Below are positions 11,939 to 57,965 of a stretch of DNA of 64,000 bases, in pieces. A program made the translations under genes and the position numbers. Below the pieces are notes generated by a model. The model was not told the origin of the DNA, ran no database searches, and worked only from the letters and a program-made list of their open reading frames with translations. Each line of letters starts with the position of its first letter. The first letter of the stretch is position 1. The DNA comes from an uncultured delta proteobacterium (GTDB lineage Bacteria; Desulfobacterota; Desulfobacteria; Desulfobacterales; JAFDCJ01). The stretch is from positions 1-64,000 of the forward strand of contig CAVYNY010000008.1 in assembly GCA_963769935.1 (NCBI GenBank). The letters are read 5' to 3'.

Positions 11939-12601
11939 GTGGATGTGGACGAATTTTTCTGCAAAATGGAAGAAGGCGCGCGAAAGGAGCTGCAGGGGGA
12001 TCTCAAAGAGGCCCTTGGCGTTTATGGGGAAGCCGAATCTCTTTACGGGGGGGATTTCCTGGCCGAGGAGCTCTATTCCCCCTGGGTGACGGCCAAAAGG
12101 GAGGAAATTCACAGAAAATATCTCGATATTTTATCGAAGATGGCTCACCTGTATGAGAAACAGGGGAGATTCAAAAAGGCCATTGTCTACAACAAGAAGT
12201 TGATCCAGGCGGACCCTTCCCTCGAGGCAGCCTACCGGAGCCTCATGATTCTATATGCAAATCGGGGCTTGCGTGCGGAGGCACTCAGAACCTATGAGGC
12301 ATGCTGCAAGGCGCTGCACCGCTATCCGAAAGCGATTGCTGGTGTCTATTTCTCGTTAGCGACTCCTTTTCTGGAGATTATCGATGCTCCCAATTTTGTG
12401 GTGGACTGGGCATATGGAAATTCGAAGGGCAAAACGACAGTTTTAAGAGTCGCCGGATCCTGTTGGGGTAATCCCGATGAACGCAGTCCCGCAGCGTTTG
12501 TCAATCAGGTCACAAAGCAGTGTTACCGGATAGAGATATATCTGGCCAAACGTTTCCGCCTCAAACCGGGCCTTTTTACCAGTTCCCTCGCCTTTATCTG
12601 A
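11939..12601 (+). pseudogene. Chimeric remnant: BTAD/TPR activator fragment fused to DUF927-like (phage primase-associated) fragment
   Basis: LYGGDFLAEELYSPW..DPSLEAAYRSLM (BTAD), then NFVVDW..GNSKGKTTVL..SCWGNP. Confidence 0.6.
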
Positions 12602-12733
12602 TCGATTGCTTCTTACCTCGGGCAACTGCGTCAGCTTTTTTCTGAAAGTGCCAGAAGGCCGGTTGTAGCTCTCTCCCCTTTCACGTCCCAGCCGCCATTT
12701 GTGACCGGAGTCACGTGGTACAATCTTTTATGC
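12600..12733 (-). pseudogene. DUF2188-like small protein remnant
   Basis: Minus strand YHVTPVTNGGWDVKGE, then after a frameshift GTFRKKADAVARG. Confidence 0.45.
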
Positions 12734-13032
12734 CTAATTTAAGTGGCTTCCTTTAAGAATGTCTAAATTTGATCGGATAATATAGATTTTAAGAGTTTAT
12801 CGATTTTTTGCCGACGAAACAAAACCCTTCAATTATCTTTGTGTCAACTCCTCCAAATTTTTCTAACTCATCCATAAAAATATTCTAAAACTCGTTATTA
12901 CCCGATTCTTTAATAATCCAATTCAGACTTTTATCCTTTGTTCTAAGCAGTGGTAATTACGGCAGTAATTTGTCGTAGGTAAAAACCGCATAAACTTATC
13001 CGGTCTTTAATGTCGGAAATGAGAGCTAACCG

Positions 13033-14301
13033 TTGACCTATGACGCTCAAAAGGATATTTTGACCCCCGAGGAGGTCTCCCAATATCTGCGCAAAAGCAC
13101 CAGCTGGGTTTACAAAAACTGGCCGGCATTGGCGGCAGGAAACTTGGAGGTTCTCTATTTTTTCCTGGAAAGGAGGACCTCTATGTGCGTCTATTTTGTA
13201 AAAGGCAAGGACAAGGGGTGGAGGTACGACTTCACCCTGAAGGGGATCAGGTACACGGAAGCCTGGTTCAAAACCAAAAAAAAAGCAAAGGAGGCAGAAG
13301 CAAAGCAACGAGAAGAGCTGAAAAGGCCGAAACTTCCGATTCCAACAGAACAGACCCCGATCGACATGGACTTCTTGGAGCTGGTAAATAAGCGACTGGA
13401 TCACGTTAAAGCGTATAATTCAGAACGGCATTACACGGATCATATATACATGGCCAGACGCTGGATTAAAGAATGGAAGGGATTAACCTGTTCGGAAATT
13501 TCAACCGACATGATCCAAAACTTTCTGCTCAAGCGATTGAGAGAAACCTCGCCATTCACGGCAAACAAGGAGCTACGGTATCTGCGGTCACTTTTCAATT
13601 ATGGATTACACCCGCGGTGCGAAACTTGATCACCCATAATCCGACCCGTGGCATCGAATTTTTTCCGGTGGACAAACAGATCAAATATGTGCCACCGAAC
13701 GAGGATGTGTTGCGTGTGATTTTAGCCGCTGAGCCGGATAGTCAGGAATATTTGTGGACGATCGCCCTGACAATAGCAAGAATGAGCGAGATAAACCGTC
13801 TGACATGGCAGGATGTGAATTTTACGGAAAGTTACCTGGTGCTGTAAACACGCAAGAAAAAAGGCGGGCACCGAACTCCGAGAAAGATCCCCATGACCGA
13901 CAAGCTACTTGATGTGCTTTCTCGCCGTTACGCCAAATGTGACAAAAGCGTACCTTGGGTGTTTTGCATCGTTACTGGAGTCGCAAAGTTGATGAATGGA
14001 TGGTCCCTACAAAGAGCGAAAAAAGATCATGCGAACGCTCTGCGACAGGGCTATAGTCAGATACTTCCGCTACCATGCGTTTCGTCATTTCGGCGCATCT
14101 TTGCTTGAGCAGTCAAATGTTCCGATTGGATCGATTCAGCGGATTCTTGGCCATGAAAACAGGTTAACGACTGAGCTTTATCTGCATTCAATTGGGGAGT
14201 CTGAGAGGCAAGCGATGGTCGTGTTCAATGAACGTTTTAGAAATTTTTCTCACACAGATTCTCACACAGATGAGAAAAGGGATATGACCGAATCGTCCTA
14301 A
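13033..14301 (+). pseudogene. Excisionase-like HTH plus tyrosine integrase, broken by frameshifts and a stop
   Basis: LTPEEVSQYLRKSTSWVY HTH; integrase from ATG 13183 with AGGAGG RBS; ARMSEI, HAFRH, LGH, ELYLH catalytic motifs; TAA at 13845. Confidence 0.85.
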
Positions 14302-14316
14302 CCCCTTGATTTTAAC

Positions 14317-14394
14317 TGGTGCGCCAGGCAGGATTTGAACCTGCGACCGACGGATTCGTAGTCCGGCGCTCTATCCGGGCTGAGCTACTGGCGC
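14317..14394 (-). tRNA. tRNA-Arg (ACG)
   Basis: GCGCCAGTAGCTCAG..CT ACG AA..GGTTCAAATCC..GGCGCACCA cloverleaf. Confidence 0.97.
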
Positions 14395-16578: not shown

Positions 16579-16655
16579 CGGGACGTGGCTCAGTCTGGTA
16601 GAGCACAGCGTTCGGGACGCTGGGGTCGCTGGTTCAAATCCAGCCGTCCCGACCA
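16579..16655 (+). tRNA. tRNA-Pro (CGG)
   Basis: CGGGACGTGGCTCAG..TT CGG GA..GGTTCAAATCC..CCCGACCA. Confidence 0.97.
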
Positions 16656-16992: not shown

Positions 16993-17142
16993 CGAAATCG
17001 TGGACACAGATTTTCACAGATGCACACAGATTCAAAAACCAATGAACCCCATCGCCTCGGCAAGAAAAAAACAGGCTAATTTCTTCCTGCAGACTATGCT
17101 GGACTACACCTTCCGCCGCCGGGCGAACCTAAAATAGTTTAT

Positions 17143-17299
17143 CTGTACTACTAATATGAAAATTCTTTAAATTTTATTAAGCAAAATAAGCCGAAAGGGC
17201 TGAAATTCTAATAATTCAAACAGGTTGTAATAAAGTTTCAGCATGGGCAAAAACGGTCATAATCGCCCACAAAAATTTGGTTGCGGCTCTGCCGCGCTG
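17143..17299. mobile_element. Non-coding mini-element sharing both ends with the adjacent 1.74-kb element
   Basis: Left 43 bp match 17297-17339 at 39/43; right 25 bp identical to 19016-19040. Confidence 0.8.
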
Positions 17300-19040
17300 T
17301 ACTACTAACGTGTAAATTCTTTAATTTTTATTAAGCAAATCATGCTGCAAGAGCTGTAATTCTTGTAATTGGAATATGTTGAGTTTGAATGACAGCAGTG
17401 ACAATTTGACGACCCTTATCAGTCAAAACATAGCGAAAAGTGCGCGGTACCTTACGGATGATTCCGTGGGCGCGAAGCATACGGAGTCGGTAAGTGATCT
17501 GGGCGGACAGACGCCGTTTTGTATGGGTATCATGATTTCCGGGATAGAATTGTTGCTGAATATCTCTATTTCTAAATCCGTTGATATTGAATTCGCCTCG
17601 GCTGATTATTTCCAGAAGGGATGTATCCTCTTTAGCCCATGGACGGAGGGCACGAACCCGCTGGCTCTTCCAACAAGTGGGGCGGCAAACCGACTCGACG
17701 ATCTCACCCAACAAACGATCCACTTTGATAGAGGCCAGGGCAGCCAGATACCGTTGGTTGGATGCTTGAGAAATTTGGGCTCGCCGATGCAGATCGGCAA
17801 TGCCTTTACGCATTCGCTGCCAGGAACAGAGGCCTTCGGGGTCCCCTTCTTTTGGACGATACACCTTGAAATCCCGGGTGGTATTCATTGTGGTCTCGAC
17901 GCGAAGCACACTTCCCTGCTTGTCGTAGATTTTTACCGAGTTGGCTTTGAGTTGATGCTTAAGTCGGATGCCTTCGGTCCGGTGTCTATAATGGCTGACG
18001 ACTTCACCTTGGAAATTGCCATGGGGTTTTTTCCCCAAAAAACGCATGACATCCTGACTGCCGAATACCGAGATGCCGCTGCGTACCAGGGTTGGGTAGA
18101 TCCTGGCCAGGCTTTCAGCAGATTTGAACATGATATCCGTGGCCCATTCACTCTGGTGGGTCGACCAATAATAAGGTTCCCGAAAAGGTGCCAGCATGGC
18201 ATCATGATCCGGATTCAAACGACGGGCAATTTCGTCGAGTGTGGCCGGCCAATTTGTCTGCAATTGCTGGTTCATCAATTCTTGGGCTTTCTCGATTTGA
18301 TCAATCCACGGAAAACAGTTATCCCGTCTTTGGTAACGAAGTCCCAGTCGATCCATTTGTCGGGCCAACCATTCGCGCCCGTTGAGACAAATCTGGATAG
18401 AGAAGGGAAACCAGCTTTGGATCCGTGCATTCATAAACCCGAATATTTCATCGATCCAGTAATGATACAGAAACAAGCACTTTCTTATTCGCGGCTGGAG
18501 CTCGAGTTTTTTCTGTTGCCGGTTCCGAAATATTTCATAACTTTGACAGGGTTCCACGGCGGTCAAAACGCAAATCAATCCCTTACGAATCCCATCGCGC
18601 TGAACAATTTTACGGGCCTGCTCCTCCTTATTTGTCTTGGCAGAAGCAAGATAGATAACAGGGCGAGCCTCCCGGTGAGCTTGTGCACAGGAGGCTTCTT
18701 TCAATTGTTTGCTTTTATCCAGAAACATTTTACCGCAATCTTTCAATCGAACCCCTGTATTCCAAAGGTAGCTCATCATTCCACTTTTGACTGCCAAAAC
18801 TCGCAACGTGCCGCGCAGAACCAAACGGTCAAAACCGCTAAGATGCCCGATGATTTGTTTTTCATATTGTGTTATAAAACTGTCCATGGCGTCCTCCTGG
18901 GTGTTGGTGGTTGTTGGCACTTCCAACAATACCCCAGTTGTGACGCCATTTCTATTTTGTTTTTCAAGTGCTTGCAAAAAGCATTTGAATCGAGTCAATC
19001 CGAAATTAAGAGCTTATTTGGTTGCGGCTCTGCCGCGCTG
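17297..19040 (-). mobile_element. Unclassified single-gene insertion element (no TIRs, CTG at junctions, subterminal GCGGC-TCT-GCCGC hairpin)
   Basis: Ends defined by the mini-element; removal restores a dispersed repeat. Confidence 0.8.
17340..18887 (-). CDS. 515-aa putative transposase/replication-initiator-like protein with C-terminal winged helix
   Basis: AGGAGG RBS before MDSFITQ; motifs GFDRL, LNGREWL, KIYDK..LRVETT, YRLRMLRAHGII..RY. Confidence 0.75.
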   Translation of the reverse strand: MDSFITQYEKQIIGHLSGFDRLVLRGTLRVLAVKSGMMSYLWNTGVRLKDCGKMFLDKSKQLKEASCAQAHREARPVIYLASAKTNKEEQARKIVQRDGIRKGLICVLTAVEPCQSYEIFRNRQQKKLELQPRIRKCLFLYHYWIDEIFGFMNARIQSWFPFSIQICLNGREWLARQMDRLGLRYQRRDNCFPWIDQIEKAQELMNQQLQTNWPATLDEIARRLNPDHDAMLAPFREPYYWSTHQSEWATDIMFKSAESLARIYPTLVRSGISVFGSQDVMRFLGKKPHGNFQGEVVSHYRHRTEGIRLKHQLKANSVKIYDKQGSVLRVETTMNTTRDFKVYRPKEGDPEGLCSWQRMRKGIADLHRRAQISQASNQRYLAALASIKVDRLLGEIVESVCRPTCWKSQRVRALRPWAKEDTSLLEIISRGEFNINGFRNRDIQQQFYPGNHDTHTKRRLSAQITYRLRMLRAHGIIRKVPRTFRYVLTDKGRQIVTAVIQTQHIPITRITALAA

Positions 19041-19155
19041 AGAAAATCTGTGTCCCAAAATTTTTTACCACTTTTCAAATGATCAAAACAAAGGAAATGA
19101 AACCTGATCTGACCGATTTCCAGGCCGCTTTGCGGGAGGAGCATCACTCTCAGCT

Positions 19156-19605
19156 TTATATCATCCCGGCCAATCCCTCCAGTGCCAGCAGATATCCGTA
19201 CGATCCGAAACCGGCGATCCGCGCCGTGACAATATCTGCGATCATCGACTGATGGCGGAAGGGTTCTCTTTTATTGACGTTGGACAGGTGTATCTCGACG
19301 ATTGGAACATCCAGCATCGCCAGCGCGTCCCGAATGGCGATGCTGGTATGGGTAAAAGCGGCGGGATTGATGATGATTCCCTGGCAGTTGCCCATGGCCT
19401 GCTGAATTTCGTCAACAATCGCCCCTTCATAGTTGGATTGAAAAGTTGCGACCTTCAGGCCAAGATCTTCACCCAATGCTTTAAGTTCTGAGTCTATCTC
19501 TTCAAGGCCCTTGTGGCCATAAATTTCGGGCTCTCGCTTGCCGAGCATATTCAGGTTGGGGCCATGAATGACCAGGATTTTTTTCGCATCGGATCTTTCC
19601 GGCAT
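19156..19605 (-). CDS. aroQ: Type II 3-dehydroquinate dehydratase
   Basis: HGPNLNMLGKREPEIYG, NPAAFTHTS, EIHLSN. Confidence 0.97.
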   Translation of the reverse strand: MPERSDAKKILVIHGPNLNMLGKREPEIYGHKGLEEIDSELKALGEDLGLKVATFQSNYEGAIVDEIQQAMGNCQGIIINPAAFTHTSIAIRDALAMLDVPIVEIHLSNVNKREPFRHQSMIADIVTARIAGFGSYGYLLALEGLAGMI

Positions 19606-26194: not shown

Positions 26195-26282
26195 GATGTC
26201 AAAATGGGACACGGATAAACACCGATTGCACGGATATATTGTTTGAGGTCATTGATAGAGAATAGCTTCTGAATCCTGCTAA

Positions 26283-26438
26283 GGGCTCACTCAAAAATAA
26301 CTTCACATTTTATACGCCGATGCATCCCGCCCGACTGCGTTGCGAAAGCTCGGAATATCCAGATATTCCTGCGTTTTCGCGCCTTGCCGGACGAGCGCCT
26401 CAACGCCTAAAACCGTGAATTAATTTTTTCGTGAACCC
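26283..26438. mobile_element. 156-bp MITE copy 1 (TAA target duplication)
   Basis: Imperfect TIRs GGGCTCAC/GTGAACCC flanked by TAA; near-identical inverted copy at 55804-55959. Confidence 0.88.
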
Positions 26439-26527
26439 TAAGCTAGGCCGAGAAGGCCCCACTTACTACTCCGTGAAGATCTGTAAAAATCTGTGTCCTT
26501 TAATTTCAATTAGCTGAATTGGTGCCT

Positions 26528-35506: not shown

Positions 35507-35718
35507 GTCGTATTTCCAATAATTAGGACACGGATTTTCTCAGATTTTCACAGATCACAGATTAGTTGATGAGCTCATAAGTTGTTAAGCTCTTTAGCAA
35601 AGGTATCTGAGCCTATTTCAGAGAAGCTTAACAGCTCAAGAACTTACGAACTCGTACAAAATCCGCTATCGAGACTCTCCGTGTCCCTCTTTAAAAAGCT
35701 AAAATCATTTGAACAAAA

Positions 35719-42041: not shown

Positions 42042-42255
42042 GAACCTGAGTTTTATACAAAAATACACCTCGGGGAAGCTGGAGGTCAAGTTATCGCAAT
42101 GGATTTGGACCGCTGGTTTTTGCAAAAAAACTAAGGTATTCAGAATCAGGGGAGATCTGCGGAAATCCATGTCCTCTAATTATCGCTGGTTTCCTGATAT
42201 TTAGTTTTGGTATTCGAAAAACCTTGAAGAAATCGAACAGGTTCTGCTAAGAATA

Positions 42256-57701: not shown

Positions 57702-57965
57702 GACGGTATTTCTTTCCCCAAAATTTTTCCTATCTTATGGGACACGGATCTTCACGGATTGACACAGATATTATAATAGCTGATAAGCTGCTGAGCTGGT
57801 AAGCAATAAGCATAAAATACTTCAATATTTTAAGAACGTACAGCTTACGAACCTACGAAATCATGAGCTAATCTATTCTATTCGCCTACGAACTCACGAA
57901 CTTAAGAGCTTACCAGCTCAATAGCTCAAGAGCTTGCCAGCTTATCAACTCAATAGCTTACCAGC

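Follow-up and report, generated by a model that had tools for sequence, protein, structure and literature searches.

The DNA analyzed was a stretch of 64,000 nucleotides (the window) from the assembly of an uncultured delta proteobacterium. The interrupted locus is intergenic, with a tRNA-Pro gene (16579–16655) on one side and the end of an open reading frame at 19156 on the other. It begins with the left arm of a host repeat cassette (17002–17031, plus strand), found by repeat search and made of three 10-bp periodic units, followed by the core of this ~165-bp cassette (17032–17141), identified from uninterrupted copies. The right arm of the cassette is split, its inner part (17142–17146, minus strand; junction comparison) being separated from its outer part (19042–19056; junction survey) by two units in tandem. 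These are a 154-bp non-coding mini-element (17147–17300, minus strand), recognized by its copies in the genome and carrying both ends of the full element, and a 1741-bp element of autonomous type (17301–19041, minus strand), defined by direct repeats and the junction survey. The presence of two units, claimed earlier from the letters of the window, was confirmed by direct repeats at spacings of 154 and 1741 which mark them both.

The 1741-bp element has one gene, no terminal inverted repeats and no target duplication. The gene (17340–18887, minus strand) encodes a 515-aa candidate transposase, assigned from the open reading frame, its conservation and a structural model, and is preceded by a ribosome-binding site (~18894–18899, minus strand). 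Read on the gene strand (window minus), the order is host C, N(C/T)AG, GC hairpin, spacer, gene, ~42 nt, TAGTAGT and host RYAG. The hairpin end of the full element starts with TCAG at 19041, and its GC hairpin (19024–19036, minus strand) lies 5 nt inside the terminus. The conserved TAGTAGT end (17301–17307, minus strand) is located 42 nt past the stop codon, and its bases −5 and −4 are complementary to target positions +2 and +1. Host base G19042 is, on the gene strand, the nearly invariant C of target position −1, while the host half-site on the TAGTAGT side (17142–17146) supplies target +1 to +5 (ACAGA on the gene strand). The GC hairpin at the mini-element's hairpin end (17283–17295, minus strand) has a 5-bp stem and a 3-nt loop. 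The genome contains one full element and four mini-elements; copies of the 154-bp form are present on contigs C34 (100%) and C16 (98%), and a shorter relative on C11. In an Rfam search the tRNA alone was matched, with no RNA family in the element.

The sequence-only reading had removed both units and joined the flanks with the boundaries set at CTG. The 20-mer rebuilt in this way does match 17002–17021 and 35526–35545, each at 19 of 20 positions. When T17146 was kept with the host and A19041 was given to the element, the empty site matched the left arm at 20 of 20. The 15-mer spanning this corrected junction has exactly 11 uninterrupted occurrences in the genome and was also found in all three of the related-genome loci tested, compared with no genome occurrence in the original register, and uninterrupted copies of the cassette (C1, C13, C21 and C35) carry T where the original join has A. 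On these grounds the unit boundary was shifted by one base. CTG is not a duplicated core; the element end itself begins with a target-like tetranucleotide. The inverted pair 17002–17019/19038–19055 is present, and this sole inverted pair of the region is host arm against host arm rather than element termini. An orthologous, fully empty allele of the exact locus was not found among 22 same-genus genomes and four runs of one study. Two joints considered as empty alleles (17031–19044 and 17146–19126) had sides of <30 bases, probably stem from paralogous repeats, and were set aside.

The interrupted repeat is dispersed, as had been proposed: the repeat query gave 19 genome matches within 3 mismatches (one being the junction itself and two looking like chance), against 0–3 for each of eight shuffled queries. 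By pattern, ~57 arms were counted in the genome, some of them likely to be chance. Uninterrupted copies of the cassette core on C1, C13, C21 and C35 are 88–92% identical, and the core was also found at non-orthologous loci of two same-genus genomes. The ~165-bp cassette (17002–17146 with 19042–19056), which recurs at unrelated loci, may itself be a mobile non-coding unit. More arms occur in the window at 26207–26498, 35526–35700, 42156–42175 and 57740–57760, and between the paired arms at 26207 and at 35526 lies other non-coding DNA, palindromic or with a period of 7–10 bp. The C16 mini-element sits in a 71%-identical cassette variant, in the other arm. An inverted partner arm does not appear to be needed for insertion, since one was present at 13 of 28 periodic sites compared with 130 of 450 controls. 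Deletion of a repeat unit upon insertion was considered and rejected; the unit that is missing does not adjoin the junction, and two-unit arms account for 14 of the 35. A link between PF13366 genes and the repeats was not established, the two genome matches being tied to no arm. In the right flank of locus L003 the repeat runs on into a seemingly broken gene, which we take to be of the GxxExxY type.

The mini-element's hairpin end starts with ACAG, so that a target site is formed anew with the host C in front of it. Most likely the mini-element was inserted first and the full element would then have entered the target recreated by ACAG, because the opposite order needs T at −1. In one contig from a related run, 17 mini-specific bases adjoin the right flank (19016–19326) and the full element is missing; the depth of this contig is 4.6, and the short side has only those 17 bases, with one mismatch. 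In the same-genus genome G402 (the same genome as G661), seven mini-elements of 218–221 bp (L124, L128, L139, L141, L142, L144 and L146) carry the whole GGACAC inverted-arm cassette and two of 150 bp (L131 and L133) carry one arm; mini-elements can thus carry the repeat. The window's own mini-element has no repeat inside, and an internal array was found in only 3 of 60 full elements. At L032, L089 and in the window, tandem arrays have arisen where one element of the family was inserted at, or directly next to, the end of another.

Junctions were surveyed in homologous loci. The TAGTAGT end was located in 80 of 98 usable loci using a profile in which the four columns tested later were masked. 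Both junctions were available at 73 sites (60 full elements, nine G402 mini-elements and four sites of this genome); the sites are not independent (a single genome contributes 10), and at least two of the junction assignments, those of L065 and L098, look misplaced and were kept in the counts. The target motif was C|RYAG. Base −1 was C at 71 of the 73 sites, and the targets started with ACAG (37), GCAG (12), ATAG (6) or ACGA (5), among others. The absence of a target duplication follows from the 42 of 73 sites at which the element start and the target share not one base. Interquartile ranges of the spacers were 42–45 nt on the 3′ side and 108–229 nt on the 5′ side.

Several minor features were recorded in the survey. 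Some end-plus-target junctions (L022, L079, L213 and L234) read TAGTATT|AC or nearly so and thereby resemble the nonamer that is nicked in circular single-stranded DNA viruses, a likeness that is probably coincidental. A distant clade (~30% identity; L101–L111, L152 and L226–L229) keeps the layout with CYAA starts and CTAA targets, in part with a CCGG-stem hairpin replacing GCGG/CCGC. Five hairpin ends in G402 (L135, L137, L143, L147 and L148) have no TAGTAGT end, and their break points share no common motif; in this genome a 17-nt hairpin-end remnant lies inside a CGCAGAG-type repeat on C3 near 21870 (G000). No solo TAGTAGT end was found (0 in G402), and neither a circle junction nor a product of one-ended transposition was seen. 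The odd left flank common to L003 and L004 was considered as one-ended transposition and rejected, as in each of them a normal hairpin end lies 442 nt upstream.

A site was scored as periodic when a like unit was present 9–10 bp away. By this measure 42 of the 73 sites were periodic, as were 21 of 49 on metagenome contigs alone and 16 of 17 in the window's own (closest) clade; in the subgroups with TCAG, ATAG or TTAG targets the count was 0 of 12. Among C|RYAG sites 34 of 54 were periodic. The corresponding control values were 3.1% across the genome and 5.7% in its intergenic DNA, both measured in a single genome whose ORFs were masked crudely, and 35 of 392 in the DNA flanking the loci themselves. 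When C|RCAGA sites were compared with intergenic controls of the same motif, the values were 33 of 42 and 23.7%; a second motif-plus-intergenic match (C|ACAGA) gave 24 of 31 and 27.5%. In this genome three of the four sites lie in GGACAC-type arms, which hold only 62 of its 42,021 C|RYAG sites; the C11 mini-element lies outside. Insertions in periodic repeats were always at C|RYAG or C|ACGA, and the independent insertions of the same mini-element (C16 and C34), together with homologous elements elsewhere, favor such repeats far more than motif-matched controls do. Homologous insertion sites, whose collection had been suggested as a check, thus show a preference for periodic repeats. The proposal that the element targets the GGACACAGAT family holds to the extent that a dispersed intergenic repeat has the insertion in one of its arms and that other insertions favor such repeats. 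It was too narrow, the target being the broader set of 9–10-bp periodic repeats (CACAGA, CGCAGA and CACGAA types), and such targeting is not obligatory, with the C11 mini-element and 31 of the 73 sites lying outside these repeats.

The same element and enzyme could have read only the short motif C|RYAGA, with motif-dense repeats and the purging of insertions in genes producing the enrichment. This explanation draws on the periodicity of 23.7–27.5% of intergenic C|RCAGA or C|ACAGA sites in the genome, on the other-motif subgroups and the C11 mini-element outside any repeat, and on the avoidance of open frames, which cross 6 of 39 testable sites compared with 715 of 1500 control sites (48%). It is nevertheless judged unlikely, because an approximately threefold excess is left after both motif and intergenic matching, and because the neighboring unit shows a bias that survival would not produce: it lay upstream of the cut in 37 of 42 periodic sites (control sites were about even), upstream only in 22 and downstream only in 5 (controls, 188 and 217). 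As the sites are related to one another, binomial p-values computed for these comparisons exaggerate the significance. The upstream bias points to recognition of the upstream unit and not to survival alone. The repeat preference is thus real but not obligatory, and is supported in the window's clade; survival in intergenic DNA may be a contributor to it. The avoidance of open frames fits the suggested role of intergenic repeats as a safe haven, but would be expected just as much if harmful insertions were purged.

Neither Pfam nor NCBIfam has a family for the 515-aa product, and the source names are "hypothetical protein". Nothing above cut-off was obtained from Pfam, NCBIfam, PHROGs or PDB sequences, where only weak winged-helix or unrelated matches were seen. 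PF02486 or PF05144 was matched at E ≤ 0.05 by 0 of 87 family members, PDB sequences searched with family profile A2 yielded no Rep protein, Foldseek gave no match on PDB at E ≤ 0.001, and a full-length ESM Atlas query returned unnamed clusters only. The model of residues 1–388 (pLDDT 96) matched TBP at Z 8.2, RepDE (4cwc) at Z 6.8 (175 aligned, rmsd 4.6) and RepSTK1 (4cij) at Z 6.7 (193 aligned, rmsd 5.0), Z-scores that are middling and in which TBP stands above the Rep proteins. Residues 230–388 retrieved Rep_trans/Phage_CRI clusters at 0.93–0.95, with the family on 14–73% of their members, and residues ~390–515 matched MarR-type winged helices at Z 8–9.

Across the 87 sequences E247, Y321, R329 and E331 are invariant, while D20, A249, D251, K319 and K323 are ≥90% conserved. 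In the predicted model the conserved D20, E247xA249xD251, K319xY321xK323 and R329xE331 all lie on strands. Their spacing repeats that given for RepD (D46, D142xA144xD146, R189xY191xK193 and R212xE214) in the text of PMC4797284 consulted, which also reports the TBP likeness of Rep_trans; the equivalence of the residues rests on this spacing, and R140 of RepD, two residues before D142, has no counterpart, the position being Gln245 here. A match of HUH type was found in neither Pfam nor NCBIfam, a His pair is missing from the invariant columns, and the catalytic motif has one tyrosine, invariant and on a strand. The protein is accordingly described as a predicted TBP-like/Rep_trans-like catalytic domain (1–388) with a MarR-like winged helix.

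Rep_trans initiators and MOBT relaxases (PF02486; 4cwc, 4cwe and 4cij; Phage_CRI, PF05144) resemble it in the predicted TBP-like sheet and in an Asp/Glu metal triad and a tyrosine on β-strands with the same local spacing. They differ in that the present protein has 515 aa and no Pfam match, a larger domain with insertions and a fused winged helix, has E for D142, K for R189 and no R140, and is encoded by an insertion element, whereas Rep_trans proteins are found in plasmids, phages or ICEs. A second parallel is the Rep-Arvir/DUF7845 group (RepSNJ2), for which the portion of PMC13107129 consulted describes a Rep_trans-like domain followed by a MarR-like winged helix, recognizable by structure only; the viral Foldseek hits A0A345MNV4 and A0A2N9QVX7 are common to both. 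Rep-Arvir proteins serve archaeal virus and plasmid replication and have a KHYYM motif and an extra C-terminal domain (same portion of PMC13107129), in contrast to the KxYDK motif, the bacterial hosts and the chromosomal insertions seen here. No member matched DUF7845 (PF25227) in the Pfam search, although the Pfam copy used may lack PF25227.

With masked columns, covariation was scored over 60 end–target column pairs, and the top two, −5:+2 and −4:+1, are both complementary. The first had 70 Watson-Crick and 5 wobble pairs of 77 (G:C and A:T), and the second 63 Watson-Crick and 2 wobble pairs of 77 (T:A, C:G and G:C). Contrasts on the tree were 4:0 of 5 pairs (p 0.125) and ~3.5:0.1 of 6 (p 0.25), neither being significant. 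Nine of 24 held-out loci scored above a preset value, and of these 9/9 paired at −5:+2 and 7/9 at −4:+1; among held-out variant loci three agree with the pairing and two disagree. These counts suggest covariation between two bases of the end and two of the target, with the tree contrasts not significant. Symmetric recognition by protein could give the same pattern, and an end–target pairing of this length is too short to appear as a fold.

A mechanism in which a Rep_trans-like tyrosine nickase transfers the element in single-stranded form to C|RYAG sites within 9–10-bp periodic repeats is the reading we favor and consider fairly likely. According to the part of PMC5714925 available, IS91 combines a tyrosine nickase, unlike ends and no target duplication with single-strand transfer, and the same combination here suggests the same route. 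Tyr321 would nick one strand at each end; the nicked strand would be copied out by rolling-circle displacement in the manner of IS91, though by a non-HUH enzyme; and the TAGTAGT end, once released, would be linked to a C|RYAG target, probably aided by the two end–target base pairs. The winged helix might read the hairpin or the neighboring repeat unit. IS91/ISCR elements and Helitrons are alike in lacking both terminal inverted repeats and a target duplication, in having two dissimilar ends and in using a tyrosine enzyme (PMC5714925, available part), and differ in that their enzyme is of the HUH type with tyrosines on a helix, as opposed to a protein with no HUH match and a strand tyrosine.

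The layout of the ends bears on the choice between modes of transfer. IS91 has its hairpin end upstream of the gene and its fixed end just after it. In IS91 and Helitrons one terminus mimics the target tetranucleotide and a hairpin stands near the CTRR-like end. IS200/IS605 elements, for their part, use a guide tetranucleotide at the hairpin foot, where here the covarying bases are in the terminal 5 nt. Their TnpA Y1 enzymes and the related TnpA-REP/RAYT proteins share with the present family subterminal hairpins, a short target motif, base interactions in site choice and an association with dispersed palindromic repeats (PMC6006769, as far as the excerpts consulted extend); they are small HUH proteins, unlike the 515-aa non-HUH protein. 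A Rep_trans-like enzyme acting instead by non-replicative peel-and-paste from single-stranded DNA, guided by base pairs as in IS200/IS605, is an alternative that has to be weighed. The subterminal hairpins at both ends speak for it, as do the complementarity of the two top-ranked of 60 column pairs and the selection of cleavage sites by base interactions in IS200/IS605 described in those excerpts. We give it only a minor share of the probability, since Rep_trans proteins are rolling-circle initiators according to the part of PMC5714925 available, and the hairpin end upstream of the gene with the fixed end just after it recalls IS91. Multiple identical copies per genome fit either mode alike. 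In sum, the end logic works like that of IS91 or IS200/IS605, but the enzyme lacks the features that define both.

Homologues of the 515-aa protein number at least 7998, with 6715 representatives at 50% identity; those listed are mostly on ~2-kb contigs. Relatives were present in 31 of 401 genomes of the order and, under stricter cut-offs, in 7 of 251, 10 of 401, 8 of 167 and 4 of 401 genomes of four other phylum samples. There was no match in 50,697 phage records, and among 72,556 plasmids only 13 distant matches were found, all on large replicons (199 kb–2 Mb). The gene might be the replication initiator of a minimal replicon integrating by Rep-mediated recombination at origin-like sites, for which the Rep_trans-like domain and MarR-like winged helix offer a parallel in the archaeal Rep-Arvir initiators (PMC13107129, portion consulted). 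This is improbable in view of the phage and plasmid counts and of the copies and mini-elements that occur with precise ends at many unrelated chromosomal sites. Still less probable, to the point of being nearly discounted, is insertion at a common CTG core by IS110-type recombination or with a 3-bp target duplication, as the sequence-only boundary implied: CTG does stand at all three junctions of the window, but that junction was found 0 times against 11 for the shifted register, ACGA-target elements have no CAG on that side, the near-identical mini-elements L131 and L133 have the same start base and different bases after TAGTAGT, and no IS110 domain was detected in the 515-aa protein.

The favored reading, a Rep_trans-like nickase acting on C|RYAG targets, was compared with further groups. 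IS110/IS1111 elements are defined by DEDD and serine recombinase domains and a common core; here there was no domain match, the core register was contradicted and no RNA family was found. DDE insertion sequences and classical MITEs have terminal inverted repeats and target-site duplications, neither of which is present. The REP-targeting insertion sequences ISPa11, ISPpu9, ISPpu10, ISPsy8, ISRm19 and ISRm22 are similar in their fixed-point insertion into intergenic repeats (PMC1525189, in the section consulted), so that a repeat-targeting lifestyle as such is already known; they are unlike in carrying known transposases, for example IS110 for ISPpu9, and the 9–10-bp periodic repeats are not classical REPs. 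No description of the present family was found in the open literature, outside ISfinder, subscription journals and supplements. The transposases of ISPa11, ISPpu10, ISPsy8, ISRm19 and ISRm22 belong to known families. Known transposases in general fall into a few chemistries, namely DDE, HUH, serine and DEDD. Rep_trans proteins, for their part, are described as replication initiators and relaxases in the part of PMC5714925 available.

The enzyme class is likely to be new. The wider proposal, to which we give somewhat less than even weight, is that the elements form an undescribed and widespread class of bacterial transposons with a Rep_trans/TBP-like transposase, base-pairing between end and target, homing to 9–10-bp periodic intergenic repeats and repeat-spreading mini-elements, so that element and landing site would amplify each other. 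If true, a transposon family of Rep_trans fold would add a class, give names to thousands of "hypothetical" genes and represent a second origin of single-strand transposition. Scarless insertion at a short motif, where the bases of the end seem to dictate those of the target, would make the system attractive as a compact DNA-writing tool, and mini-elements carrying repeats offer a possible and testable dispersal route for periodic repeats that are otherwise unexplained. The ends, the target motif, many independent insertion sites and the periodic-repeat enrichment were observed; the fold and active site are model predictions.

Two further features of the window were noted. At 11939–14394 a phage-type integrase is present in pieces (13033–13629 and 13996–14301), adjoining a tRNA-Arg gene (14317–14394), along with a DUF927 fragment fused to a BTAD fragment; this segment is probably what is left of an integrated element. 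For the 515-aa gene, the codon-aligned antisense frame is fully open (17376–19082, plus strand; 568 aa), the gene having no TTA, CTA or TCA codon. The same antisense frame was stop-free in 26 of 104 related loci, with a median of 2 stops compared with 20.5 and 23.5 in the other two frames; in control genes of 44–50% GC it had a median of 11 stops, and 1 of 125 had none.
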